Of a stretch of 64,000 nt of DNA, positions 18,043 through 31,016 are shown piece after piece. The notes under the pieces were generated by a model. The model worked only from the letters and a program-made list of their open reading frames with translations. It did not search any database and had not been told where the DNA came from. This DNA comes from Patescibacteria group bacterium. GTDB lineage: Bacteria > Patescibacteriota > JABMPQ01 > JAQVVF01. A program made the position numbers and the translations under genes. Position 1 is the first letter of the stretch; each line of letters begins with the position of its first letter. The stretch lies in assembly GCA_028699085.1 (NCBI GenBank), contig JAQVVF010000002.1:68557-132556 (forward strand), written 5' to 3'.

Positions 18043-18075
18043 AAAAAACGGATCTTTCCAGAATCCGTTTTTTTA
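18043..18075. terminator. Bidirectional terminator between convergent genes
   Basis: ACGGAT (18048-18053) pairs with ATCCGT (18063-18068), flanked by an A-run on the 5' side and a T-run on the 3' side. Confidence 0.75.
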
Positions 18076-18096
18076 TTTAAAATAATCCTTTTAATA

Positions 18097-18879
18097 TTAC
18101 ATCGGCCTCAATGTTCCAGAAAAAATTTGCCAAGCCAAAGCTGATTTTGCAATCAAACTTAATAGAATATAAATTGATTCGCCATACAAATAATTTTTCC
18201 AAGGCCCAACTTTCCTATACTGCAAAAACATATTTAAAGCAAAGATATCAAAAAACACAAATATCGAAATCAAAATTCCATAAACAAATTTTGGAATTAC
18301 ATCACCAACGGAAGAAACTGCTCCAGCAAAATAAAGATAAATCACAATCCATGGCACGATTCCCATAATGCAACCAAAAACAAAAGCAGTCCAATTGATC
18401 TTCGTCGTCAATTGATTATATTTTTCCATCATTAGCCCAAATAAAATCATTGCCGAATTAACAGTAAACATTAATATCAAGCTTGATAAGTCATACATAC
18501 CGCATAGCATTGAAATAATCACAATCATTAATGAAGAAGAAATAGCATATTCATACCATCTGATATAATTGATGTGCTTTTTTAAATTTCTTTCATAGAA
18601 TTTAAATAATACTGTTGCAGTCAAAAAATGAGCTAATGCTGAAAGAAATAAGAACATCGCTACCATCGGACCAATTCTCAATTCTGCAACTTCCTTTATA
18701 ACTGTTGTTATTGCTTTTGTTGCCAAATCAAAACTCAAATAAGATGTCGTGATTGGCAATTTAAAATCATTGCTCAACCACAACATTAAGCAAGCTTGAA
18801 TCAAATGGAAAAAACCCATCACTGCATTATAAATCCGCAGCTTGCGATAAGTTTTTTCAGAACCTGTTTTTGTTGTCAT
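18097..18879 (-). CDS. Heliorhodopsin
   Basis: 260 aa with 7 transmembrane segments. Near-collinear match, from memory, to heliorhodopsin 48C12: GFFHLIQ (H25), SALAHFL (H84), RWYEYAISSSLMIV (E110), FGCIMGIVPWI, YILLSLIAKSALAWQIFSGTL (K245 as the Schiff-base lysine). Confidence 0.9.
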   Translation of the reverse strand: MTTKTGSEKTYRKLRIYNAVMGFFHLIQACLMLWLSNDFKLPITTSYLSFDLATKAITTVIKEVAELRIGPMVAMFLFLSALAHFLTATVLFKFYERNLKKHINYIRWYEYAISSSLMIVIISMLCGMYDLSSLILMFTVNSAMILFGLMMEKYNQLTTKINWTAFVFGCIMGIVPWIVIYLYFAGAVSSVGDVIPKFVYGILISIFVFFDIFALNMFLQYRKVGPWKNYLYGESIYILLSLIAKSALAWQIFSGTLRPM

Positions 18880-20403: not shown

Positions 20404-21771
20404 TTACCAGCCAAGCCCATAATTAAATTGTCCGCCATTTCTTTTTGGAAAACGTCTGCTTCCTTGTCCGTCAGTTTGCTGACGTCCACGTCTTTGTCCT
20501 TGAAAATTAGATCTGCCTCTTCCTTGGAAGGAAGTATTAGTTCTAGCTTGTATTGGACGAAAAGAATTGAAAGCAGGCTGGATTGATTGCTCTAATTCTG
20601 GAGTTTTCGAAATACTAATGCTATTTCTAATTAGTCTTTCTATTTGAACAACTTTATATTTTTGATCTGACATAGCAAATGAAATTGCTCGTCCACCTTT
20701 TCCAGCTCTGCCAGTTCTACCAATTCGATGAACATAATCTTCTGGATCATCAGGCAAATCATAATTGATAACTAACTCAATACTTGAAACATCAATACCT
20801 CTTGATGCAACATCAGTTGCAACCAAAATTCTTGATCTGCCTTGCTTAAATAAATTTAAAGCTGCTTGTCTTTGAGCAAAGCTCTTATTGGAATGTATTT
20901 CAGAAGCATTGAATCCAGAAGTAATCAAAAATCTACATAATTTGCTTGCACCAAATTTAGTTCTAGTAAAAATTAATACAGTTCCTTTGTATTGTTTTAA
21001 CAATTTTGATACTAGTAATCTTTTTTGATGAGGATTTACAACAAACAATTCCTGATCAACATTTTCAGCTGCAGTGCCAGCTTGAGCTACTTCAATCCTG
21101 ATTGGACTTTTCATATATTTTGCTGCAATTGCAACTATTCTTCCAGGCATTGTTGCTGAAAACAACATCGTTTGCCTATTTGTTGGTACAGTTTCCAATA
21201 TTTCTTTAATTTGAGGCGCAAAACCCATATCTAGCATTCTGTCAGCTTCATCCAAAACTAAAGTATTAACTTTGCTTAAATTCAAATTGCGTCTTTGTAA
21301 ATGATCAATTATACGGCCTGGAGTGCCGATAATAATGTGTGGATGGCTATAGATTCTTTGTCTTTGCATGCTCATTGATGCGCCACCGACCAATATCGCA
21401 GTTTTGAGACCAAGAGTCCTGCCAATTTTTAATAATGATTCATCAACCTGCATCGCCAATTCTCTTGTTGGCAAAAGAATTAAACCTTGACCATTTGTCT
21501 TGGCAATTCTTTGCATCATTGGCAAACCAAAAGCCATTGTCTTACCAGTACCAGTTTGAGCTATGCCGATAATATCTTTTTCAGAAATAGCAACTGGAAT
21601 AGCCTTTTCTTGAATTGGAGTTGGAATTGTAAATTGTTGTTTTTTCAACGAATTTAAAAGATCTGGGACTAATCCTAGATTTAAAAACGACGCTTTCTTT
21701 GAAAGCACTGCTTCATTTGACATAAATATGTGATCCGATTCCTGCGACGTCACATATTTAGGTAAATGCAT
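20404..21771 (-). CDS. DEAD-box ATP-dependent RNA helicase with an Arg/Gly-rich C-terminal tail
   Basis: Q-motif region, AQTGTGKT, DEAD, SAT and HRIGRTGRAG motifs. The start is uncertain (Met at 21771 or 21723). Confidence 0.93.
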   Translation of the reverse strand: MHLPKYVTSQESDHIFMSNEAVLSKKASFLNLGLVPDLLNSLKKQQFTIPTPIQEKAIPVAISEKDIIGIAQTGTGKTMAFGLPMMQRIAKTNGQGLILLPTRELAMQVDESLLKIGRTLGLKTAILVGGASMSMQRQRIYSHPHIIIGTPGRIIDHLQRRNLNLSKVNTLVLDEADRMLDMGFAPQIKEILETVPTNRQTMLFSATMPGRIVAIAAKYMKSPIRIEVAQAGTAAENVDQELFVVNPHQKRLLVSKLLKQYKGTVLIFTRTKFGASKLCRFLITSGFNASEIHSNKSFAQRQAALNLFKQGRSRILVATDVASRGIDVSSIELVINYDLPDDPEDYVHRIGRTGRAGKGGRAISFAMSDQKYKVVQIERLIRNSISISKTPELEQSIQPAFNSFRPIQARTNTSFQGRGRSNFQGQRRGRQQTDGQGSRRFPKRNGGQFNYGLGW

Positions 21772-21822
21772 GAGCGAGGCTCGAATCTATGGGTGAAAAC
21801 ACCCTAATTTCTAATTACTCTA

Positions 21823-21851
21823 AGTATAGCAAAAAATTAATCTTTTGTCAA
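21823..21851 (-). promoter_or_regulatory. Sigma-70-type promoter for the helicase gene
   Basis: On the minus strand, TTGACA (21851-21846), a 17-nt spacer, then TATACT (21828-21823). The 5' UTR contains the hairpin GGGTG-TTTT-CACCC. Confidence 0.55.
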
Positions 21852-21888
21852 TAAATAAAAAATCTAGTTGAATAAATTAACGTTAAGA

Positions 21889-22407
21889 TTAAATTTTTCG
21901 ACTATCATATGCCCAATGCAACACTGCCTGTCTTTGTCTTTTCCGGCAATCCCAATCACCCTTAAAACAATTTTTCTTAATCTGAGCAATATGGCGCTTT
22001 ATTGCCTTCCAACGCTTTATCTGACGCTGATCATCGTTGTGTCTTCTTCCCAAATAGTATCTACAATACCATTGAAACCAACCTCTAGGATCATCAACAT
22101 GAATCCATCCTTTAGCTCTCCAAACTGACAAAGGCTGACTAGCATTAATGCCAAAATAATTCAATTTTGGATCATGAAATTCATGACAAAGCTTTGCTTT
22201 TTTATACCAATCTACTGGAAATTCTTTTTTACAATCAGTCATATACTTTCCGCCAAAAACACCCATTTCTAACATTTCTTTCGGCGTAAGTTCGGGCCGA
22301 AATTCAGGATCAAAATTTTTACCCATTGGTTCTGTCAAATAATATCGATAATTCTTCTGCATTAAATCATTAACTACCACCAATTTTTTATACTTTTTAT
22401 TTTTCAT
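21889..22407 (-). CDS. Conserved hypothetical protein (Trp/Cys/Arg-rich, DPRGWFQWYCRYYLGRR motif)
   Basis: A 172-aa ORF. I recall the motif from uncharacterised proteins but cannot name the family. Confidence 0.6.
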   Translation of the reverse strand: MKNKKYKKLVVVNDLMQKNYRYYLTEPMGKNFDPEFRPELTPKEMLEMGVFGGKYMTDCKKEFPVDWYKKAKLCHEFHDPKLNYFGINASQPLSVWRAKGWIHVDDPRGWFQWYCRYYLGRRHNDDQRQIKRWKAIKRHIAQIKKNCFKGDWDCRKRQRQAVLHWAYDSRKI

Positions 22408-22565
22408 ATTAATATATTTTATTTTTCTTCAAAGACACTTCTTAATTCATCTTTTCTCTCCTTAAAATTTTCTTTCGGTTCCTTACTTTTTTTTATGCTC
22501 TTTATATCTAAAGTATATCAAAAATCTAATCAACAAAAAATCCCCACACAGGAGGATTTTTAATT

Positions 22566-23579
22566 TTATTTTATTTTTAAAATCTTACTCGGCGAATTAA
22601 ACATCGCATTCATCAAAGATTCAGCCACATGAAAAGGCTTGCCTCGATATGGCACTTCATGAATATCAAAACCAGGCATGTAATTTATTTCAATTATTCC
22701 AAATTTTTCAAACTTTTTAATATCAGAAGCAATCAAATCAATCGCGCAAAATCTTAATTGAAAAATTTCCGCAATTTCTACTGCCAACTTTTTATATTTT
22801 GGATTTACTTCACTATCACATTCAAATGATCTTCCTCCAGTACTAACATTAGCATTCTGTCGCAAAAAAACTTTGTCATCTTTCACAACAACATTATCCT
22901 CAGTTAATTTCTTTTCTCTCAAATTTCTTCTGAATTCAAAATCATTTACAATTGGACATAATGGCTGATCTTTGCCTACTCCTGGCTGATCATTATATTC
23001 GTCAATTAATTGTCTGATTGTTTGCTTACCATCTCCATCAACATAGGCAGGCTCACGTCGCAATGATGTTAACACTTTTCCGTCCATCACCAACAATCGA
23101 TAATCACAACCAAAAAGATATTCTTCAATCAGAAAAGAATTCGGTCTGCCTTTTTTACGACGATTATATTTGTAAACCTCTTTAATTGCTCCAATCAAAC
23201 ATTCCTTATCTTTTATTCCAACAGTTACTGCATGTCCTTGACTGCCATCTATTGGTTTGACCACAACAGGAAATTTAATAATTTTCTGATCAACCATCTG
23301 CAAAGTCTTGCGCATATTTTTCAAAATCCAACCCTTTGGATTCGGAATTTTATGTTTATTCAAGATCAATTTTGCCAAAGCTTTATTACCAGAAACAGTG
23401 CAAGAAACATGGCTATTCAAATCAGGCACATGCCATTTTACATAGACATTTTTACCTTTTTTACTGAATATTCTTAAACCTCTAGCTTTATCAACTAGCT
23501 CAACATCAACACCATTTTTCTCGGCTGCCGATAATAACGCTCCCGTGCAATTAAATTTCGAATACGGTATTTTTTCCAT
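22566..23579 (-). CDS. Stand-alone ATP-grasp ligase resembling the cyanophycin synthetase G (ATP-grasp) domain
   Basis: FPVVVKPIDGSQGHAVTVGI, LIEEYLFGCDYRLLVMDGKV, REPAYVDGDGKQTIRQLIDEYN, LRQNANVSTGG and IIEINYMPGFDIH all parallel CphA segments recalled from memory. There is no Mur-ligase-like domain. Confidence 0.75.
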   Translation of the reverse strand: MEKIPYSKFNCTGALLSAAEKNGVDVELVDKARGLRIFSKKGKNVYVKWHVPDLNSHVSCTVSGNKALAKLILNKHKIPNPKGWILKNMRKTLQMVDQKIIKFPVVVKPIDGSQGHAVTVGIKDKECLIGAIKEVYKYNRRKKGRPNSFLIEEYLFGCDYRLLVMDGKVLTSLRREPAYVDGDGKQTIRQLIDEYNDQPGVGKDQPLCPIVNDFEFRRNLREKKLTEDNVVVKDDKVFLRQNANVSTGGRSFECDSEVNPKYKKLAVEIAEIFQLRFCAIDLIASDIKKFEKFGIIEINYMPGFDIHEVPYRGKPFHVAESLMNAMFNSPSKILKIK

Positions 23580-23717
23580 GATTTAAAACTTTCTTTATAT
23601 TTTTATATAAAAAGACACTCTGTCCAGACTGTCTTTTTAGAAAAACTTGATTATTTGATTATTATGATATAATAACAAAAATTAAATAATATGTCAAGTT
23701 TGCAACTTTTTATCACT

Positions 23718-23788
23718 TCGGGGACCCGGGAATCGAACCCGGTCTACATCCACCCCATGGACGCGTACTACCGGTATACTAGTCCCCG
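23718..23788 (-). tRNA. tRNA-Pro (anticodon GGG)
   Basis: Manual cloverleaf: acceptor CGGGGAC/GTCCCCG with discriminator A, anticodon stem CGTCC/GGATG, loop AUGGGGU, T-arm CCGGG-TTCGATT-CCCGG. No encoded CCA. A TTGATT-17-TATAAT promoter lies just upstream. Confidence 0.9.
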
Positions 23789-23828
23789 ACTTAAACATTA
23801 TTATATGCTTTAACAACCGCAAAATCAA

Positions 23829-23858
23829 CAAAAAAAAAGAAGCTATATATAACTTCTT
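23829..23858 (-). terminator. Terminator after the lipoprotein gene
   Basis: AAGAAG (23837-23842) pairs with CTTCTT (23853-23858) plus inner A/T pairs. On the minus strand it is followed by a long T-run. Confidence 0.55.
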
Positions 23859-23901
23859 ACATAAAAAAACAAAAAATATCATAGATCAAAATTAGAATTT
23901 T

Positions 23902-24555
23902 CTATTCGATTACTTCACATCTTATTGTCGGCTTGTTGCTCCATACGTACACCGCAGTAAGTGTAATATCAGCAACTGTCTCACTACCAACTGTTTGATA
24001 AAAACTAGTTTGGTACACATTGAAACGCAAAGAATCACTTCCTATAGACCTTTTGCTTCCATCATCTTCAATAATAAAACATTCGGAATCAACAAATTTA
24101 CTTTCTTTCCCATTGAGCGGAGCTTCTACTTTGACCTCATAACCACCAATCAATAAATTAGAAAAAGAATATGTCCCATCAAAATCTGGCGTATCAATTC
24201 CTTCATATTGGCAAAGAGGATTAGATCTACAAGCATCTATTAAATCGCTGTTATTGCCCTTATAGCTATACCGTATTCTCAGTTCCGTTTCAAAATCATT
24301 ATATTGCCCATTACATTCATGTTTATAAGTGTCTTCAACAAATACGCATTGTATTTTTCTACCTTCTTTCATGGCAGAATAAGGAATAACGCCTCCTCCC
24401 GGAAACCTGATATATATACTACCAGACACGCTTCCAAACTGATCTTCTGACAAAGTAATGGTTTGATTTTGACTCTGATCTTGTTCACAAGACAACAAAA
24501 CGCTTATCAAAACAAATATCACGACACTGAAAAATCGAGTCTTGTTCTCTAACAT
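23902..24555 (-). CDS. Predicted lipoprotein with a carboxypeptidase-regulatory-like beta-sandwich segment
   Basis: Start chosen at the ATG preceded by GAGGAGGG. Signal peptide MLENKTRFFSVVIFVLISVLLSC with a lipobox-like LLSC. GTYSFSNLLIGGYEVKV resembles the CarboxypepD_reg pattern. Confidence 0.6.
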   Translation of the reverse strand: MLENKTRFFSVVIFVLISVLLSCEQDQSQNQTITLSEDQFGSVSGSIYIRFPGGGVIPYSAMKEGRKIQCVFVEDTYKHECNGQYNDFETELRIRYSYKGNNSDLIDACRSNPLCQYEGIDTPDFDGTYSFSNLLIGGYEVKVEAPLNGKESKFVDSECFIIEDDGSKRSIGSDSLRFNVYQTSFYQTVGSETVADITLTAVYVWSNKPTIRCEVIE

Positions 24556-24644
24556 TCTCCCTCCTCTTTTGGGTTTCAACTATCACGAAATAATTTTCTA
24601 AAGATCTTTCTTTACATAAATTAATTTTCTTTAAACATTAATTT

Positions 24645-24672
24645 ACATTACAACACTTTTCTATTTTGTCAA
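24645..24672 (-). promoter_or_regulatory. Candidate promoter for the lipoprotein gene
   Basis: On the minus strand, TTGACA (24672-24667), a 16-nt spacer, then TAATGT (24650-24645). Confidence 0.45.
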
Positions 24673-24673
24673 T

Positions 24674-24697
24674 AAAAAAAGCCACATTGCTGTAGCT
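24674..24697 (-). terminator. Terminator closing the CC/CDC operon
   Basis: The minus-strand RNA AGCUACA-GCAA-UGUGGCU forms a 7-bp stem with one G-U pair, followed by UUUUUUU. Confidence 0.65.
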
Positions 24698-24713
24698 CTA
24701 CAAAAAGAACAAA

Positions 24714-24911
24714 TTAACCACGAAGTTTCAAAAAATTCAATCTCTTATCTTTCGTTTTTCTCTGAATCGGAACTGTCAAAAATTTTTTCTTACAATGCTC
24801 AAAAGGAATACCTTCGCCTCGTCTTGTTTGATTTAACATAAAAACAGAATCTACCGACAAATGGTTGCTGAACAAAGTAATGAGCAATGCTTCAAAAAGT
24901 CTGCTTCCCAT
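24714..24911 (-). CDS. 65-aa hypothetical protein overlapping the 3' end of the upstream gene by 20 nt
   Basis: Start chosen at ATG 24911 because AGGAGA lies 6 nt upstream. The protein begins MGSRLFEALLITLFSNHLSVDSVFMLNQTRRGEGIPFEHCKKKF... and has no recognised family. Confidence 0.45.
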   Translation of the reverse strand: MGSRLFEALLITLFSNHLSVDSVFMLNQTRRGEGIPFEHCKKKFLTVPIQRKTKDKRLNFLKLRG

Positions 24912-25308
24912 CTTGATCTCCTGTATCATCGAATATCCCTGAGAATCTGACCAAATCAGTCCTTAAATCACCAGGTCTCTTTCTTTCATCCTGCAATAAA
25001 AAATGGAAACCTTTGCCTTCAGATTCAACAGGATTACTATCATGTGGCAAAATCACCAAGTTCCAATTCTGAATACAGGTAGTATCTTGAAAAGGATTGA
25101 AATTCCTCAAGATCTCACAATCACATTTGATTTTCAAAGCCATGAAAAAAATGGTTACCCTTCCGAAATGAATTCTGCCAATTCCATTTTTTTGCATTTC
25201 ATTATATTCAGCGATCACTTCTCTGGTCTTTTCCAAACTATGAATTCCACCTTCACAACAACCAGCACGTCGCGCATTCAATTCTTGGTAAAAAGTTCCT
25301 ATCTGCAT
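24892..25308 (-). CDS. Hypothetical protein, CC...CDC motif, paralog A (138 aa)
   Basis: Start at the ATG preceded by GGAGGGGG (7-nt spacing). It is a paralog of the gene immediately upstream, shows higher GC than the host, and matches no recognised family. Confidence 0.65.
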   Translation of the reverse strand: MQIGTFYQELNARRAGCCEGGIHSLEKTREVIAEYNEMQKNGIGRIHFGRVTIFFMALKIKCDCEILRNFNPFQDTTCIQNWNLVILPHDSNPVESEGKGFHFLLQDERKRPGDLRTDLVRFSGIFDDTGDQDGKQTF

Positions 25309-25309
25309 T

Positions 25310-25702
25310 TCACACCCCCTCCGATCCGACACAGCACTGCGGCATCATCGGATCGCATACGCCACGCACGTAATCTAAATTGATTACACCCAAATCACCA
25401 ATCGAAATTCCCTTTCGCACTCCCTTAATAGACAAATCCCACTGCTCAGACAGCCACCCATTGCCCATATTCAAACATTCCACCTGGCAATCGCATCTCG
25501 CTCCAATTTCCATCAAAAATTCAATCGCCCAATCAGCACGAATTGAAAACTCCAAAGACAGCTCCTGCACTCTGCTAAAAGAATGAACATCATTGCTGCA
25601 ACATTTACGGCCTTCGCGCATCAACTTTACAAAACCAATCAAATCCAAACTGCCTTTTTCAATAGAAAAACCAGAATCGTAAATAGAGCTCATTGGACTC
25701 AT
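25310..25702 (-). CDS. Hypothetical protein, CC...CDC motif, paralog B (130 aa)
   Basis: Start at the ATG preceded by GGAGGA. Its TGA stop is separated from the ATG of paralog A by 1 nt (TGA-A-ATG). Both share CC..(G/D)(I/V)HS(L/F), CDC, W(N/D)L(V/S)I and GDL. Confidence 0.65.
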   Translation of the reverse strand: MSPMSSIYDSGFSIEKGSLDLIGFVKLMREGRKCCSNDVHSFSRVQELSLEFSIRADWAIEFLMEIGARCDCQVECLNMGNGWLSEQWDLSIKGVRKGISIGDLGVINLDYVRGVCDPMMPQCCVGSEGV

Positions 25703-25830
25703 TTCCTTTTCCTCCATCACCAGCATAACTTTTGCTGGTTGCCTGCCAAAATTGGCAGGTCTTTTTTACCTTTTGGGCGTCAAATTTAAGAACAAAAAAT
25801 TGACATCAAAATGTCAAAAGAACATATCTA
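25703..25830 (-). promoter_or_regulatory. Structured 5' leader of the CC/CDC operon (three hairpins/palindromes)
   Basis: On the minus strand: TTGACAT-TTTG-ATGTCAA followed by TTTTTTG (25800-25817), CCTGCCAA-TT-TTGGCAGG (25742-25759), and ACCAGCA-6/7 nt-TGCTGGT (25719-25739) ending 3 nt before the SD. Confidence 0.5.
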
Positions 25831-25832
25831 CT

Positions 25833-25860
25833 AATATATACTATTTTAATATTTTGTCAA
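25833..25860 (-). promoter_or_regulatory. Sigma-70-type promoter of the CC/CDC operon
   Basis: On the minus strand, TTGACA (25860-25855), a 16-nt spacer, then TATATT (25838-25833). Confidence 0.55.
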
Positions 25861-25906
25861 TAAAAACAAATCACAAATCATGAACTGTATGTAATCTTAT
25901 AATATC

Positions 25907-26977
25907 TTAATTTATAGCTATATTCTCAATAATTCTTACAATATTTACCAAATCAGCTATTTTAATTTTCTCTTTTACACTATGACATTTTTCCCGACCA
26001 TAACCAATACTCAAAGACTCAATTCCTTTTTCACAAAAAACATTTGCATCTGTCGCTCCCATTCTCTTTTCATATGCTACTTTCAATCCCGACTTTCTAA
26101 TACCCTTTGAAATCATTTCGACTAAAGCGCTGTCTTTTTTATAATTATATCCAACAACTTCCTGCATTTTTTTCAATTCATATTTAGCATTGAATTTTTT
26201 ACAGCTATTTTTTAATTTTTTTTCTAATATTCCAATTTGTTTTTTAAAAATATTTTTATCAATCGCCCGAATCTCACCAACAAAATTTATTTCATCACAG
26301 ATTACATTTCCGCCTCTGCCACCAGAAACAACACCAATATTTGAAACACAATATTTGCTAATCCTGCCCGGCTTCCACATATTAATAAATTCTGCAAGAC
26401 AATTAATCGAATTCACGCCTTCTTCTGGCGCGCGCGAGTGCGCCATTTTTCCAATTACCTTACCCGAAAAACTCTGAATATATGGAGCGCCACAAGTTAT
26501 AAAGCCACAACGCGATGAACTATCAATAATTACTGCTCTCTTTGATTTCAAATTTTCGAAAACTAAATTCCTTGCTCCAACGCATCCAATTTCCTCCTGC
26601 ACTGTAAAAATCAATTCCAATGGCCGTACATTTTTTTGTTTTCGTAAATTTTTAACTGCCAACAAAATACCTGCAACACCGGCTTTATCATCAGCTCCCA
26701 AAATTGTCCTCCCATCGCTTCTGATAACACTATTTTTAATTATTGGCTTAATATTTTTTCCCGGCGAAACTGTATCCATATGAGCCGACAAAATTATTGG
26801 CTCGCCTCTGCCTTTTGTTTTTGCAATCACATTGCCGATTTTATCTTGCTTTGCTTTAATTTTAATTTTTTTTAAATAATCAATAATAAAATCAGCAACC
26901 TTTTTTTCATTGCCAGTTTCACTATTAATTTTTACTAGTTTCAAAAAAACTCTTACAACTTCAAGATCTCTCTTCAT
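25907..26977 (-). CDS. M20-family metallopeptidase/amidohydrolase (PepT/ArgE/DapE-like)
   Basis: SAHMDTV, LGADDKAGVAGIL and TVQEEIGCVGA metal-ligand motifs. Host-like AT-rich composition and no SD. Confidence 0.8.
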   Translation of the reverse strand: MKRDLEVVRVFLKLVKINSETGNEKKVADFIIDYLKKIKIKAKQDKIGNVIAKTKGRGEPIILSAHMDTVSPGKNIKPIIKNSVIRSDGRTILGADDKAGVAGILLAVKNLRKQKNVRPLELIFTVQEEIGCVGARNLVFENLKSKRAVIIDSSSRCGFITCGAPYIQSFSGKVIGKMAHSRAPEEGVNSINCLAEFINMWKPGRISKYCVSNIGVVSGGRGGNVICDEINFVGEIRAIDKNIFKKQIGILEKKLKNSCKKFNAKYELKKMQEVVGYNYKKDSALVEMISKGIRKSGLKVAYEKRMGATDANVFCEKGIESLSIGYGREKCHSVKEKIKIADLVNIVRIIENIAIN

Positions 26978-26993
26978 AAAAAATAATTAAATA

Positions 26994-27021
26994 ATTATAT
27001 CTTAAATTTAATAATTCTCAA
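26994..27021 (-). promoter_or_regulatory. Candidate promoter for the M20 gene
   Basis: On the minus strand, TTGAGA (27021-27016), a 16-nt spacer, then TATAAT (26999-26994). Confidence 0.4.
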
Positions 27022-27045
27022 AAAAAGGATTAACTAATTTCTTAA

Positions 27046-28767
27046 TTAATCCATAAAAGAACAACTTGTCATTGCCGAATTAGATCGGCCATGAACAATA
27101 TAACCATCAGAGATTGGAATGCAAGTCACTGTATTTCCGCCAAAACTAGAGCTATTTGCATCATTATCAAGCCAATACCAAACACAAATTCTCGTCCGCA
27201 CATTTTCTTTGTCCGCCTTTTTATTAGCTGGATCAAAAATCATCATTTCATCAATTACCATCTCGCAATATTCTTGAGCAATAACAGTTCGTTGTTTTGC
27301 CATTTCCGCAAATGTTTTCACTAGCTTTCTCCATGTACTCCGCATCATCCCCTTACTAATTGCCACAGCATGTCCGCCAGCAGCTTTGTTATCACCACCC
27401 GACAACTTCAGCACTACTTCCGCATCCAATCTTTTTCTAGCCTGTCTAATTTTTACAAACCAATTTTCTCGACCAGACATCACAAAAATTTCTCGCCCAA
27501 CATTTTTAAACATTGTTACCATCTTTGTGGATTCAGGATCAGCCATTTTCCATCCTCTCGTTGACTTTGCCAAAGCCATCAAAGACTTCAAATCTCCCAA
27601 TCCTAAAAATATCTTTTTTCCTAGTTCCAAATCTTTTTTATCTCCCAACTCACGAAAACCAATCAGTTGCAAATTATTATCAAAAGCAAACCAATATTCC
27701 CGAATCTGCATATCTGAAAGTTCCTGCATTGATTCATTAGAATATTCAACGCCCTTCCAAATAAAATTGTTTCCTTTCCAAACAACTGTATAGGCAAAAA
27801 AATTTTTCAATTCAACAAAACCATCGCTTCCCAAAAATTTGATCCATTCTTCATTCAAACGCTCATCAAATAACCATGCCATCAATTCTTTATAATCCAA
27901 AAAAGTCAGCAGATTTGGATGCAGTAAAACTTTGCCATCAAAATAGGCATCAATAATCTTCTTTTCAATATCTGCTGCAAATACTGCCATCCTGTTTTTC
28001 TGTAAATCATTTTTGTCAATTTCAGAATATTCTTTGAAGACTCTTTCCACCAAATCAAGTTTTTTGCCTTTCAAATAAACTCCATCATCTTTGACTTCTG
28101 CCAGAAAAGATATCCCAAACAAAAAAGTCAAACCAAATTCTTTTCCGTATTCTTCAAACAGCTTTGTCAAAGCCTGCTGTTCCGGACCATAACCATCGCG
28201 CCAAGGAGTCAAAAGAATTCCCACATTTCCGCCATTTGGCAACAAATCATGGATAGCTTCGACATACTTTTTGGCAATTGGCTCAAAAAATTTTTTGTCA
28301 GGGAAAAAATTACGCGAAATAATATCAATTACTGCTCCATAACCAGAACCAGTTGCACCCAAAGTAAATTCATTAATCTTCAATCCTTCAGCAGTTCTGA
28401 TTGCATCAATCCGAATTCTTTTTGCCAAAATTACGTTTTTTCTTTCCAATTCTTTTTTCCAAATCTCAATCTGCAATTTTGACCGACCGCAACACAAATC
28501 CTGCCACAGCCAAGAATATTCGCCATTGCTTGATCTCCTCGCCAAATCAACACAACCTCTCAAAAATCTTGGAATCAGATCTTCAAGCCTTTTCAAAGTT
28601 GCAATCTCTCCACAAGTCAAAGCATAAGTTTCCAGCCCAATTCTTGCCGTATAATTTTTTGGCATAGTCCCAATTTTTCCCCAATAAAGACCTTGTTCCA
28701 AATATTCCTTTTCCATTTGCCTACCCAAATCATCATAATCAAACAGCTGTCTGCTCGTTCCCTGCAT
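27046..28767 (-). CDS. Glutathionylspermidine-synthetase-like / circularly permuted ATP-grasp amide ligase (573 aa)
   Basis: RIRIDAIRTAEGLKINEFT parallels R.D......G..KLLE.N. HPNLLTFLDYKELMAWLF parallels P.......NKALL.LLW. VVLKLSGGDNKAAGGHAVAI parallels V.KP...REG..V. VIAQEY parallels the hinge. All parallels are to GSP-synthase family members (E. coli YgiC/Gss) recalled from memory. AGGAGAG lies 6 nt upstream of the ATG. Confidence 0.55.
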   Translation of the reverse strand: MQGTSRQLFDYDDLGRQMEKEYLEQGLYWGKIGTMPKNYTARIGLETYALTCGEIATLKRLEDLIPRFLRGCVDLARRSSNGEYSWLWQDLCCGRSKLQIEIWKKELERKNVILAKRIRIDAIRTAEGLKINEFTLGATGSGYGAVIDIISRNFFPDKKFFEPIAKKYVEAIHDLLPNGGNVGILLTPWRDGYGPEQQALTKLFEEYGKEFGLTFLFGISFLAEVKDDGVYLKGKKLDLVERVFKEYSEIDKNDLQKNRMAVFAADIEKKIIDAYFDGKVLLHPNLLTFLDYKELMAWLFDERLNEEWIKFLGSDGFVELKNFFAYTVVWKGNNFIWKGVEYSNESMQELSDMQIREYWFAFDNNLQLIGFRELGDKKDLELGKKIFLGLGDLKSLMALAKSTRGWKMADPESTKMVTMFKNVGREIFVMSGRENWFVKIRQARKRLDAEVVLKLSGGDNKAAGGHAVAISKGMMRSTWRKLVKTFAEMAKQRTVIAQEYCEMVIDEMMIFDPANKKADKENVRTRICVWYWLDNDANSSSFGGNTVTCIPISDGYIVHGRSNSAMTSCSFMD

Positions 28768-28814
28768 TTTTTTCTCTCCTGCCTACATTTTTGTAGGCCC
28801 TGGTTGTAAAGAAC

Positions 28815-28841
28815 AATCAAAAACCGGCTTTTAGAGCCGGT
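28815..28841 (-). terminator. Rho-independent terminator (module 1), 47 nt upstream of the ligase ATG
   Basis: ACCGGCT (28823-28829) pairs with AGCCGGT (28835-28841). On the minus strand it is followed by TTTTTGATTG. Confidence 0.7.
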
Positions 28842-28868
28842 CTTTGCACAATATAATTTCTTTAAAAA

Positions 28869-28955
28869 TTATCTTATATAATACAAAAATCGACTCATAA
28901 AAATGAAATGATAATGCCATGAATAAAATTTAAATTGTTGACTGATACTTAACAT
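28869..28955 (-). CDS. Candidate 28-aa mini-ORF (module 1)
   Basis: Hand translation gives MLSISQQFKFYSWHYHFIFMSRFLYYIR. It is paralogous to the mini-ORF at 29082..29156. There is no SD, so coding status is unproven. Confidence 0.3.
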   Translation of the reverse strand: MLSISQQFKFYSWHYHFIFMSRFLYYIR

Positions 28956-29028
28956 ATATATACTTAATTGCTTATATTCGTACGATTAGTTGCAGTTGCA
29001 GTTGCATTCGCAATATTAATAAGATGAA

Positions 29029-29057
29029 AACAAAAACTGGCCCAGATATTGAGCCAG
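29029..29057 (-). terminator. Rho-independent terminator (module 2)
   Basis: The minus-strand CTGGCTC-AATATCT-GGGCCAG forms a 7-bp stem with one G-U pair, followed by TTTTTG. Confidence 0.65.
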
Positions 29058-29081
29058 CTTTTTAAAAAAATTATTTAAAAT

Positions 29082-29156
29082 TTATACAATAAAAAGTCGA
29101 CTCAATAATCTTGAATGCCAGTAATGTGTATAAAATTGTCGGCTAATATTTTTCAT
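29082..29156 (-). CDS. Candidate 24-aa mini-ORF (module 2)
   Basis: Hand translation gives MKNISRQFYTHYWHSRLLSRLFIV. The ATG lies 8 nt after a consensus -10, so the transcript would be near-leaderless. Coding status is unproven. Confidence 0.3.
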   Translation of the reverse strand: MKNISRQFYTHYWHSRLLSRLFIV

Positions 29157-29164
29157 AATAATAT

Positions 29165-29192
29165 ATTATATAACACCTACATCTTTTGTCAA
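29165..29192 (-). promoter_or_regulatory. Consensus sigma-70-type promoter driving module 2
   Basis: On the minus strand, TTGACA (29192-29187), a 16-nt spacer, then TATAAT (29170-29165). Confidence 0.6.
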
Positions 29193-29210
29193 TATAACTT
29201 ATCAACAGGC

Positions 29211-29693
29211 CTATTCTGTTCCTTTTTCTTTTTCAGAATATAAATAATCATAATCTATTTTTTTGTATTTAAATAATTCATCATTATTAAAAAATCTGAA
29301 TACTTCTTTCTCCGTATTTTCAGGACTATCGGAAGCATGAACAATGTTGCTTGAACCAGATATACATAAATCGCCTCTGATACTTCCAGCATCAGCTTCA
29401 TAGCCCTTTGTTGGTCCAACTAGCAAGCGAACAGCTGATATCGCATTATAACCTTCCAAAACTGCAGCAACACAAGGCGCACTTTTCATAAAACCCTTTA
29501 AGTCATTAAAAAAAGGCTTGTCCTTATGATGAGCATAATGTTCATCTAATAATACATCGCTTAATTGCATCATTTTCAATGCTGTAATTTTCAATCCTTT
29601 TTTTTCAAAACGAGAAATCACTTCACCTAAAAGATTTCTTTGCAAACCATCTGGTTTTATGATAACTAATGTTCTTTCAATTTTGTCTGGCAT
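29211..29693 (-). CDS. ndk: Nucleoside diphosphate kinase (with a short C-terminal extension)
   Basis: ERTLVIIKPDGLQRNLLGEVISRFEKKGLKI...NIVHASDS (active-site His region). Confidence 0.93.
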   Translation of the reverse strand: MPDKIERTLVIIKPDGLQRNLLGEVISRFEKKGLKITALKMMQLSDVLLDEHYAHHKDKPFFNDLKGFMKSAPCVAAVLEGYNAISAVRLLVGPTKGYEADAGSIRGDLCISGSSNIVHASDSPENTEKEVFRFFNNDELFKYKKIDYDYLYSEKEKGTE

Positions 29694-29711
29694 AAAATTG
29701 TTTTATTTAAT

Positions 29712-31016
29712 TTAACCTTTAATTTTGTCCATTAATTTTCTTAACTTTTTCAAAATCCTGAACTGTCCATCTTCCATAAAAAAATCTTTCAAATTTATTT
29801 CTTTATTCAATCCTCTTTTTATTCTCTTTCTCCAAGAAGACTGCTCATGTGATTCTATTGTTTCAAGATACAGATTTAATAATTTCTGAGTTTGATTTTG
29901 GATCGAAAATAATTTTGCTAGTTCTAAAGACTTTGTCGACATTTTAGCACGTAAATCTGGATTTCGCAACAACTCTAAAACTTTTTCAGAATATAAATCT
30001 GAATCATCATTTGGAATTTCAAAACCATTCTCTAAATCCGCCACAACTGAAGTCAAACCTTCATCCTTCAACATTACAATTGGCAAACCAGAAGCTGCTG
30101 CTTCCAACAAAACCAAACTTTGAGTATCAGTCTTCGATGCAAAAACAAAAAATTCTGCATCTGCAAAACATTTTGGCACTTCATCTCGATTCGCAAATCC
30201 GCCAAAAATAACTCTGTCTTGCAATTTCATTTTTTCAAATTCATTTTTTAAATCATCTAAACTTGGTCCAGAACCGATTATCGCCATCACGCAATTTTCA
30301 TCTTCTTTAGCTACTTTTTCAAACATCTCCGCTAAAAACATCGGATTCTTGGGAAGAGCCACTCTGCCCAAATACATTATTATTTTCTTGTCAGCTGGAA
30401 TATTAAACTTTGATCTTAAATATTTTTTTTCAACATTACTAAATTTATCCAACTCAATTCCAGTCTGAATAACTGAAATATCATTTTTTACTCCATATTC
30501 TTGCAACATTTTTTTAACTTTTTCCGAAGGCGAAATTAAAGCATCGCATCTTTGGCTATAAAAAACTGAGATATCTTTTGCCAAGCTCATCACTGCTTTA
30601 TCCATCCTATACCAATTTTTAAATAATGAATGACCTGTATATTTTTCATAAAGCGTATGATAAGTATGGACAACTGGAATATTATAAAATAATGCTACAA
30701 TACTTGCATACATTCCCATATAAAATGGCGTATGAGAATGAACTATGTCAATTTTAAATTTATAAAAATCATGAAAAATCGGAGGTAGATTTGGAAGCGT
30801 CATTGTGAATTCCGAAAATACATCTTGCTTCAATGATTCAATACGATAAACTCTTGGACCATCTTTTGGAACATTTCCATTTTCATCTTTTAATAATGGC
30901 GCAAAAATAAAAACCTGATGACCTTGTTTTTCCAGTTCATCTTTGAATAAATCTATTGAGTTCGCAACACCAGAGACATAAGGATGATAGGTGTCTGTAA
31001 AAAATGCTATATTCAC
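29712..31016 (-). CDS. Family 4 (GT-B) glycosyltransferase; GTG start
   Basis: NIAFFTDTYHPYVSGV N-terminus and a C-terminal E..GL...EA...G.P motif (LLEAAASGLPIV). The start codon is GTG at 31016-31014. Confidence 0.85.
   Translation of the reverse strand: MNIAFFTDTYHPYVSGVANSIDLFKDELEKQGHQVFIFAPLLKDENGNVPKDGPRVYRIESLKQDVFSEFTMTLPNLPPIFHDFYKFKIDIVHSHTPFYMGMYASIVALFYNIPVVHTYHTLYEKYTGHSLFKNWYRMDKAVMSLAKDISVFYSQRCDALISPSEKVKKMLQEYGVKNDISVIQTGIELDKFSNVEKKYLRSKFNIPADKKIIMYLGRVALPKNPMFLAEMFEKVAKEDENCVMAIIGSGPSLDDLKNEFEKMKLQDRVIFGGFANRDEVPKCFADAEFFVFASKTDTQSLVLLEAAASGLPIVMLKDEGLTSVVADLENGFEIPNDDSDLYSEKVLELLRNPDLRAKMSTKSLELAKLFSIQNQTQKLLNLYLETIESHEQSSWRKRIKRGLNKEINLKDFFMEDGQFRILKKLRKLMDKIKG

Follow-up and report, generated by a model that had tools for sequence, protein, structure and literature searches.

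A divergent ATP-grasp ligase gene with a conserved PepT-like M20 neighbour and two tandem candidate attenuators in a Patescibacteria group bacterium

The ligase locus

We analysed a 64,000-nucleotide (nt) stretch of contig JAQVVF010000002.1 (assembly GCA_028699085.1, positions 68,557 to 132,556; hereafter the window) from a Patescibacteria group bacterium, in which a gene for a 573-amino-acid (aa) ligase is followed on the same strand by a 356-aa M20 metallopeptidase gene and preceded by a 440-bp region containing a promoter, two mini open reading frames (mini-ORFs) and two terminators (Table 1). Both long ORFs exist as listed in a first-pass annotation of this DNA, which took them for an amide-forming and amide-cleaving pair in an organism with minimal metabolism. 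The source fits that description, as the DNA derives from a Patescibacteria metagenome-assembled genome (MAG) and relatives come from Candidatus Saccharibacteria. Saccharibacteria and other Patescibacteria are unable to make their own amino acids, and to our knowledge very little is known about how Patescibacteria sense and respond to the nutrient supply of their hosts. We consider it reasonably probable that the locus combines an active, divergent, circularly permuted ATP-grasp ligase, a conserved PepT-like M20 neighbour, and two tandem ribosome-mediated attenuators that gate the ligase.

Table 1. Features of the ligase locus (positions in the window)
Feature	Position	Strand	Basis
M20 metallopeptidase, PepT-like (tripeptidase-like), 356 aa	25907..26977	(-)	Pfam, TIGR01883, PDB
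M20 promoter, TTGAGA-16 nt-TATAAT	26994..27021	(-)	11/12 consensus match
Terminator-like hairpin with T7 run, overlapping the ligase stop codon	27020..27052	(-)	-10.9 kcal/mol
Ligase, 573 aa, predicted circularly permuted ATP-grasp (glutathione-synthetase/GspS clade)	27046..28767	(-)	ORF list, predicted fold
Family-specific insert of the ligase, residues ~378-445, ahead of the K454 strand, lid region	27433..27636	(-)	
Attenuator B terminator, 12-bp hairpin with T-run, 50 nt 5' of the ligase ATG	28818..28846	(-)	terminator scan, -14.4 kcal/mol
Mini-ORF B, 28 aa, MLSISQQFKFYSWHYHFIFMSRFLYYIR, second, paralogous putative leader peptide	28869..28955	(-)	conserved in five loci
Attenuator A terminator, segments 3 and 4, 13-bp hairpin with T-run	29032..29062	(-)	terminator scan, -16.7 kcal/mol
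Mini-ORF A, 24 aa, MKNISRQFYTHYWHSRLLSRLFIV, proposed leader peptide	29082..29156	(-)	conserved start and frame
Leader-ligase promoter, TTGACA-16 nt-TATAAT	29165..29192	(-)	sole 12/12 consensus match in 23500-29800

Conserved residues and predicted fold of the ligase

The ligase start codon is preceded, about 8 nt upstream, by an AGGAG Shine-Dalgarno sequence. The first-pass annotation had read the protein as carrying the ordered motif set of glutathionylspermidine-synthetase-like amidoligases; the strings that it quoted are present and are the most conserved parts of the protein, and only its spacing formulas were one residue off in places, the true spacing being G128-x-K130 and P284-x8-K293. 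Of these strings, RIDAIRTAEGLKINE corresponds to residues 119-133 and HPNLLTFLDYKELMAWLF to residues 283-300, while VVLKLSGGDN surrounds K454 and QEY occupies residues 498-500. In an alignment of 65 relatives sharing 17-23% identity, R119, D121, G128, E133, K293, K454, S456, G457, Q498, R526 and H559 were invariant or more than 90% conserved, and the same was true of G140, G142, Y193, E196, R242, W308, G464, W479 and G560; the Gly-rich loop S456-G457...G464 was invariant. The agreement far exceeds what chance motif spotting would yield. Weak hmmsearch and hhalign alignments to YgiC and D-Ala-D-Ala ligase placed R119-x-D121 on the R-x-D motif, E133 on E-x-N and K293 on the lysine of SNK, and the YgiC alignments were colinear with the R-x-D...E-x-N...SNK order. 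The E-x-N site itself is occupied by E133-F-T135, in agreement with the substitution reported in the first-pass annotation. By analogy with every characterized member of the clade, the ligase would bind Mg-ATP between a side formed by K293, K454, the Gly-rich loop and Q498 and a facing side formed by R119, D121, E133 and T135.

The protein is indeed longer than YgiC-type enzymes (573 versus ~386 aa), and the extra length has two sources: an N-terminal helical region, which is common to relatives of ~460 aa, and an insert of ~65 aa (~378-445), at which distant relatives have no residues. The insert was predicted poorly (predicted local distance difference test score (pLDDT) 44-79) and is the least conserved part of the ligase family. 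Comparison with the allele at locus L005 showed that the ligase is under purifying selection, with ratios of nonsynonymous to synonymous substitution rates (dN/dS) of 0.08-0.30; the core gave 0.08-0.09, the N-terminal and insert regions 0.27-0.30.

The ligase had no Pfam or NCBIfam match even at an E-value of 0.1. This included the Pfam profiles against which the first-pass annotation had proposed to check it, namely GSP_synth (PF03738), CP_ATPgrasp_1 and CP_ATPgrasp_2 (PF14403), none of which matched at E<=0.1, as well as GSH_synth_ATP and GSH_synthase, and there was no NCBIfam counterpart either. PDB sequence searches with the single ligase sequence and with 7- and 65-sequence profiles returned non-significant matches only, among them profile matches to YgiC/YjfC at E 0.36-1.1, and an hhalign comparison of the ligase profile with YgiC reached E 6e-4 with a probability of 28%, which is suggestive and short of proof. 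Weak sub-threshold matches to GSP_synth were found in two of the 65 relatives (best 4e-4, 20 bits versus a cut-off of 29.3), and to CP_ATPgrasp_2 also in two of the 65 (best 0.0065). The core family is very small: among 5.8 billion sequences it forms seven clusters at 90% identity, and among 1.84 billion it has two representatives at 50% identity. A wider profile search of the 5.8-billion-sequence database recovered the core family and P0116 only, a scan of JGI metagenomes recovered no ligase relatives, and a genome scan recovered just two loci, both of them already known. A Candidatus Saccharibacteria MAG carries one copy of the ligase, 61% identical, on a contig of 654 kb. An exhaustive profile search detected ~100 distant relatives of 420-500 aa, with E-values down to 3e-19; they are members of a family whose more than 5000 clusters are all annotated as 'hypothetical' and carry no Pfam domain.

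An AlphaFold2 model of the ligase, computed with the distant relatives in the alignment, reached a pLDDT of 87.4 and a predicted template modelling score of 0.84. In Foldseek searches this model matched human glutathione synthetase at 2.6e-15, Cp1B at 1.5e-9, and GspS, YgiC and YjfC at ~1e-8. The nearest folds were eukaryotic-type glutathione synthetases, which are tripeptide synthetases, ranking slightly above GspS and YgiC, an order that Foldseek reproduced independently, and the permuted order of the elements in the predicted model matches the circularly permuted ATP-grasp clade. Although the Pfam check gave no match, the model and the Foldseek result confidently place the predicted fold in the glutathione-synthetase/GspS clade. 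The original reading of the protein as a circularly permuted ATP-grasp amidoligase is thus supported by both the predicted fold and the conserved ATP-site residues, with the nearest fold refined to glutathione synthetase, and nothing that the first-pass annotation had listed as refuting it was observed. The ligase, which current sequence libraries do not cover, is an insert-bearing new variant inside a known enzyme clade, and our literature search returned no earlier description of the ligase family or of an ATP-grasp/M20 pair in Saccharibacteria.

Several features distinguish the ligase from the known members of this clade. The eukaryotic-type glutathione and homoglutathione synthetases (human 2hgs/8fbz, yeast 1m0t/1m0w, soybean 3kaj and potato 5oes, with the G. 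pallida glutathione synthetase-like effectors 5oeu/5oet) share 10-12% identity with it; compared with these enzymes, the ligase matches neither of their two Pfam families, has Thr in place of the Mg-ligand Asn, carries the extra ~65-aa insert before the K454 strand and has no gamma-glutamyl-cysteine ligase gene near its own. The YgiC/YjfC, GspS and trypanothione synthetase domains rank below glutathione synthetase as fold matches. They are also shorter (about 386 aa) and lack the N-terminal helical region of the ligase, and the neighbour of YgiC is the DUF1190 protein YgiB, whereas that of the 573-aa ligase is M20. The partner hydrolase of Gss is a fused CHAP amidase, whereas M20 is a separate gene here. 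Another match, Cp1B (9cjn), belongs to fungal secondary metabolism, shares 12% identity with the ligase and has an unrelated gene context. In the fungal E-64 pathway, Cp1B acts as an ATP-grasp enzyme that forms an amide bond; the same work (PMC12568646) cites YgiC/YjfC as peptide-spermidine ligases.

The only relatives of the ligase detectable by sequence are those of the ~460-aa bacterial family (for example P0014, P0161 and P0131; more than 5000 clusters), which share its catalytic residues and N-terminal helical region. They differ from it in their 17-23% identity, in lacking the 378-445 insert, in having Asp at the Thr135 site and in having no M20 neighbour. Within this wider family (L014 4797-7362, L015 2648-5213, L016 5001-7857 and L017 2829-6404), one branch has the gene overlapping a GCS2 (gamma-glutamyl-cysteine-ligase-type) gene; in other branches its neighbour is a radical-SAM gene of lysine-2,3-aminomutase-like (KamA-like) type, and a gene for a glutaredoxin or a Ddl-like ATP-grasp protein is close by. 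These contexts look like several unexplored small-peptide pathways.

The M20 gene and its linkage to the ligase

The gene directly downstream of the ligase encodes an M20 protein, as the first-pass annotation had stated, and starts 68 nt beyond it in the window. The protein matched Pfam Peptidase_M20 (PF01546; 3.6e-21, 76.5 bits versus a cut-off of 24.6) and M20_dimer (PF07687; 3e-11, 43.7 bits versus a cut-off of 21). The best M20 subgroup was the PepT-like TIGR01883 (2.1e-72, full length), which is the closest subgroup with membership uncertified, as the score of 244.1 bits misses the equivalog cut-off of 274.25. The closest solved structures were 3rza, a 'tripeptidase' (3.9e-52), and 3gb0, a 'Peptidase T' (7.7e-49). 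Residues H66, D68, D97, E128, E129, D152 and H332 align with the metal and catalytic residues of 3rza, and the HxD, DD, EE, D and H di-metal site is intact. Thus, compared with the known PepT-like M20B proteins, the gene product matches over its full length and has the same metal site, with a score under the cut-off.

M20 was found directly 3' of the ligase in all six testable contigs, represented by the window, L001/2/3, L004, L005-8, L009/L012 and L010 (ligases P0002, P0003, P0004 = L009/L012, P0005 and P0006); the P0007 contig, which ends 75 nt past the ligase, was left out of this count. The conservation of this gene neighbourhood, raised in the first-pass annotation as a check, therefore held in contigs with differing flanks. 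The outer genes differ from lineage to lineage, with NDK, a TrpR-like gene plus a 129-aa ORF, HD or HAD upstream, and small Cys-rich ORFs, an ABC transporter or OTCase downstream of M20, while the adjacency, order and orientation of ligase and M20 are kept down to 37% ligase identity.

The short gap between the two genes is itself conserved in its signals. At the place of the terminator-like hairpin in the window, L004, L012 and L001 have hairpins of differing sequence followed by a T-run (-12.5 to -16.2 kcal/mol), and the M20 promoter block TTGA[AG]AATTA..AAATTT..GATATAAT is kept in all six loci, within a spacer that varies from 68 to 252 nt. Because a conserved terminator and a promoter of its own precede M20, it is a conserved neighbour of the ligase, not a co-translated partner. 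The proposed ligase/amidase pair thus stands as two conserved neighbouring genes that have separate transcription signals. We regard the chances that the two genes are also functionally linked as evenly balanced.

Two tandem putative leader units upstream of the ligase

Judged from its sequence, the region upstream of the ligase has the anatomy of a leader-peptide attenuator of the trp/phe/his type, present twice in tandem. The leader-ligase promoter of the window has comparable TTGACA boxes in L005 and L009/L012. Its -10 box ends 8 nt 5' of the mini-ORF A ATG; to judge by this spacing, the transcript probably has little or no untranslated leader. In L005, terminator A and the mini-ORF B ATG are just 26 nt apart, too close to accommodate a promoter between them. 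Both mini-ORFs are kept in five loci (the window, L005, L004, L009/L012 and L001/L002), and a single unit is found in L011, giving 11 units for comparison (five A, five B and the one of L011). The leader ORFs have 23-30 codons, and codon 13 is Trp in all 11 units.

Each unit consists of segment 1 (AGCCGACAA), a Phe/Tyr/Trp/His codon block and, at the 3' end of the ORF, segment 2 (UUGAGUCGGCUUUUU), whose sequence is complementary to that of segment 1 as well as to that of the terminator 5' arm (AAAAAGCUGGCUC). For mini-ORF A, segment 1 lies at ~29136-29144, the aromatic block at codons 8-14 and segment 2 at ~29091-29105. Phe, Tyr, Trp or His occupies six of the seven codons at positions 8-14 of mini-ORF A and eight of the ten at positions 8-17 of mini-ORF B, against a background of 10%. 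For helices that were derived from these same 11 sequences, 89% of the cells were paired in helix 1:2, 93% in helix 2:3 and 97% in helix 3:4, compared with 21-67% in slid controls, and the 3:4 helix showed one compensatory change from U-A to C-G. In the window, the 2:3 helix of unit A (-13.7 kcal/mol) was matched by four of 300 shuffles, and the helix of -13.8 kcal/mol that joins the 3' end of mini-ORF B to the 5' arm of its terminator by two of 300. Within the ORF, it is the 3' end that pairs best with the terminator 5' arm, and this holds for all 11 units (z -1.4 to -5.9). The divergent L011 unit, using other sequences, forms overlapping and mutually exclusive 1:2 (-14.7 kcal/mol) and 2:3 (-15.6 kcal/mol) helices, the latter with two of 500 shuffles as good.

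When a ribosome was simulated by masking at the Trp codon, the minimum-free-energy structure switched from terminator to antiterminator in four of the five A units and two of the five B units; masking at the stop codon gave the terminator in all 11 units. The leaders are also conserved in an unusual way at the codon level. Third codon positions are 0.76-0.93 conserved in the leaders versus 0.48-0.73 in the ligase, and in the comparison with L001, position 3 of the leaders (0.76-0.81) is more conserved than positions 1 and 2 (0.56-0.68), indicating a constraint on the nucleotides and not on the peptide. The first-pass annotation had entertained the mini-ORF peptides as ligase substrates; they look more like attenuator leader peptides. 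That the tandem attenuators control the ligase is, on these sequence features, somewhat more probable than the contrary.

The units resemble E. coli trpL, pheL, hisL and the pheM leader of pheST in being short ORFs in which codons for the putatively sensed amino acids are clustered, in their predicted, mutually exclusive 1:2, 2:3 and 3:4 pairing and in an intrinsic terminator located just 5' of the regulated gene. Unlike the classical attenuators, they occur in tandem, mix Phe, Tyr, Trp and His codons in one block with a single invariant Trp, have no Shine-Dalgarno sequence and begin with an ORF that is probably leaderless; the candidate regulated gene is a ligase in an amino-acid auxotroph and not a biosynthetic operon, and there is no Rfam match. 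An Rfam scan of 21000-31000 returned sub-threshold chance matches only (L20_leader, 25.8 bits versus a gathering score of 58.7), with no riboswitch, T-box or leader, and the mini-ORF peptides matched no Pfam or NCBIfam family. Elsewhere in the window, neither a pattern search nor a covariance model detected further leader units; two borderline matches (21554-21683 and 18044-18165) were attributed to chance, as they fell in coding sequence or on an ordinary terminator. Should the attenuator prove real, it would be a further case of a known mechanism, here in Patescibacteria, for which our literature search returned no report of attenuation.

At the two most divergent loci, whose ligases are 37% identical, a short hydrophobic ORF (L011 476-556, ending ...FVILVVLAVILGIVEHLAQRKKS; L010 2-64, ending ...LIVLVVIMCLVEHLAKRRKQ) overlaps the ligase start by ATGA. 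In L011 this ORF has a good AGGAGG site. The ORF lies at the expected place of mini-ORF B and could encode a small membrane partner or represent another type of upstream ORF.

A model for the locus and its alternatives

On the model that we favour, the ligase, by analogy with every characterized member of the clade, would activate a small peptide or acid by phosphorylating its carboxylate, and would couple the resulting acyl-phosphate to an amine, most likely an amino acid, in a glutathione-synthetase-like reaction that adds one residue. M20, transcribed from its own conserved promoter after the terminator, would most likely hydrolyse the ligase product or supply ligase substrates. Since the ligase is nearest to tripeptide synthetases and its neighbour is tripeptidase-like, the most economical chemistry is the extension of a short peptide or acid by the one and the hydrolysis of short peptides by the other. 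In each attenuator, the leader ORF places the Phe/Tyr/Trp/His codon block between RNA segments 1 and 2. A ribosome stalled at the aromatic codons would leave segment 2 free to form the 2:3 antiterminator, allowing read-through into the ligase; a ribosome at the stop codon would cover segment 2, so that the 3:4 terminator forms; and with no ribosome, 1:2 pairing would again permit the 3:4 terminator. The ligase alone would thus be induced when charged Trp, Tyr, Phe and His tRNAs are scarce.

Several observations weigh against this model. For the regulatory part, besides the derivation of the helices from the units in which they were scored, the terminator persisted under simulated stalling in unit A of the window, in three B units and in L011. 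Covariation was non-significant, the observed score being reached by 182 of 500, 69 of 500 and 17 of 500 shuffles for helices 1:2, 2:3 and 3:4, respectively, which is explained by the close relationship of the units. Mini-ORFs A and B both lack a Shine-Dalgarno sequence, and the latter lies inside the transcript. The reason for inducing an ATP-consuming ligase under amino-acid starvation is also not obvious. For the enzymatic part, the reaction is modelled on fold relatives at 10-13% identity, the Asn of E-x-N, a third Mg ligand, is Thr135 in seven of seven family members (Asp in the wider family), and GSS22 and GSS30, which are among the top structural matches, were deposited as 'glutathione synthetase-like effectors'. 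As for M20, it has its own promoter and is preceded by a terminator, so that it may not be co-regulated with the ligase, and the adjacency could be synteny inherited within one small lineage.

The last of these points leads to an alternative in which the adjacency has no functional meaning, M20 being a housekeeping tripeptidase that belongs to the genome backbone, with the leader-ligase cassette upstream of it by descent. The conserved terminator and separate promoter between the genes suit this alternative, as does the comparison of the window with L005, in which identity is 99-100% in M20 and all that follows it but 60-86%, as a mosaic, across the ligase and leaders, indicating that the cassette recombines independently of M20. 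The known members, moreover, all come from one narrow lineage of seven clusters, and the wider family, whose relatives adjoin GCS2 or KamA-like radical-SAM genes, is unlinked to M20. We nevertheless hold this alternative to be unlikely, if worth serious attention, because the two genes stay adjacent, in one order and orientation, even at 37% ligase identity and with different outer genes on both sides in every lineage, and because a peptide ligase beside a tripeptidase is chemically coherent. A much more doubtful proposal is that the ligase protein is a non-catalytic or repurposed ATP-grasp fold, with for instance a binding or regulatory role. Thr135, the large and poorly predicted insert and the two deposited effectors could be read in this way; however, there is no variation at R119, D121, E133, K293, K454, the Gly-rich loop or Q498, Thr is able to ligate Mg and has its counterpart in the Asp of the wider family, and purifying selection is strongest on the catalytic core.

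Two further alternatives concern the substrate, and we consider each improbable. The mini-ORFs might encode precursor, scaffold or substrate peptides, like those of ribosomally synthesized and post-translationally modified peptides (RiPPs) or pearlins, with the ligase activating the C-terminal carboxylate of the peptide and adding an amine or amino acid, M20 trimming or releasing the product, and leaky terminators serving only to keep the ratio of peptide to enzyme high. Two paralogous short ORFs do lie directly 5' of an enzyme of peptide-ligase fold and a peptidase at every locus, and their conserved N-terminus (MKNISRQF) and variable C-terminus recall a RiPP leader and core. The C-terminal carboxylate of a peptide is the site of action of GspS, glutathione synthetase and YgiC/YjfC alike; PEARLs, by which scaffold peptides are extended, have been proposed to derive from the fold of the ligase; and terminators after precursor genes are common in RiPP clusters. 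Yet the codon-position conservation of the mini-ORFs is unlike that of a protein, with position 3 above positions 1 and 2 in the comparison with L001, and their conserved 'residues' fall on RNA segments 1 and 2, whose pairing with each other and with the terminator arm would serve no purpose in a mere peptide gene. They have no Shine-Dalgarno sequence, whereas the ligase has AGGAG; the peptides differ in C-terminus (V, A, R, L or Y) and in length, offer neither Asp nor Glu as a site of side-chain ligation and match no peptide family; and with no modifying enzyme besides the ligase and the peptidase, the pair alone would amount to a futile cycle. The other substrate proposal, which follows the first-pass annotation, is a peptide-polyamine ligase of the GspS/YgiC type, which would join spermidine or another polyamine to the carboxylate of a peptide or thiol-peptide, with M20 in the role of the Gsp amidase. 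The sole sequence-level hints do point to GSP_synth and YgiC/YjfC (the Pfam match at 4e-4 in one distant relative, the PDB profile matches and the hhalign alignment described above). However, Gsp amidase is a CHAP cysteine peptidase and not an M20 protein, M20 here is closest to tripeptidases, the conserved neighbourhood has no polyamine genes, and one distant relative is in an operon with a GCS2 gamma-glutamyl-cysteine-ligase-type gene, an arrangement that follows glutathione-synthetase-like logic.

If our model holds, the ligase would represent a new enzyme family, one that has no Pfam, NCBIfam or PDB sequence match and points to the more than 5000 'hypothetical' bacterial clusters of the same fold, a conserved ligase-tripeptidase pair in a minimal genome would imply a small peptide metabolite worth identifying, the attenuators would name the signal that induces the ligase (a shortage of charged Trp, Tyr, Phe or His tRNA) and so make its function experimentally approachable, and classical ribosome-mediated attenuation would operate in these ultra-small bacteria. 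A more speculative extension, to which we give little credence at present, is a previously undescribed regulatory-metabolic module of Saccharibacteria, in which the tandem Trp/Tyr/Phe/His attenuators switch on the ligase under aromatic shortage, the ligase makes and M20 degrades a small peptide metabolite that helps the epibiont to obtain or spare host aromatics, and the allelic mosaicism of the ligase in substrate-side regions reflects diversification of that metabolite.

Allelic mosaicism and neighbouring genes

Comparison of window 27046-28836 with L005 5560-7355 showed that the ligase is allelically mosaic between near-identical strains. From the last 150 nt of the ligase through M20 and ~2.5 kb further, the two sequences are 99-100% identical; the ligase blocks 28836-28246 and 27945-27196 (residues ~1-175 and ~275-525, including the insert) are 60-86% identical, and the block between them is 98-99% identical. 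This pattern indicates recombination with divergent alleles. The diverged blocks have a dS of ~0.85 and a dN/dS of ~0.3; positive selection in them was considered and rejected, as the dN/dS of 0.27-0.30 at this dS fits imported divergent alleles.

At the place corresponding to window ~29172-29220, L005 has three extra genes between NDK and the leader region (L005 2874-5195), with products of 337, 107 (Trp_repressor family) and 129 aa; these genes are absent there and elsewhere in the window and from the other loci. For this reason, the TrpR-like gene upstream in L005 was rejected as a co-regulator.

On the same strand, 2.3 kb downstream, the window also contains a second, classical ATP-grasp ligase of 337 aa (22566-23579, (-)). 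This stand-alone domain matched the ATP-grasp module of cyanophycin synthetase at 1.2e-67 (model residues 160-473) and that of the bifunctional GshA/GshB at 1.9e-56, and it was not found near the ligase in the L001, L004 and L012 contexts. Directly 3' of M20, two ORFs of 146 and 138 aa (24892-25332 and 25310-25726, both (-)) overlap and appear to be paralogous; both are Cys-rich (CC...H...KCDCE / RCDCQVEC) and match no family; L005 has genes of 130 and 127 aa in their place, and L001 and L004 have none. A 225-aa ORF (23902-24579, (-)) has an N-terminal hydrophobic segment followed by Cys and is possibly a lipoprotein or surface protein; it forms a locally diverged spot, with 75-87% identity to L005 in a 99% background.

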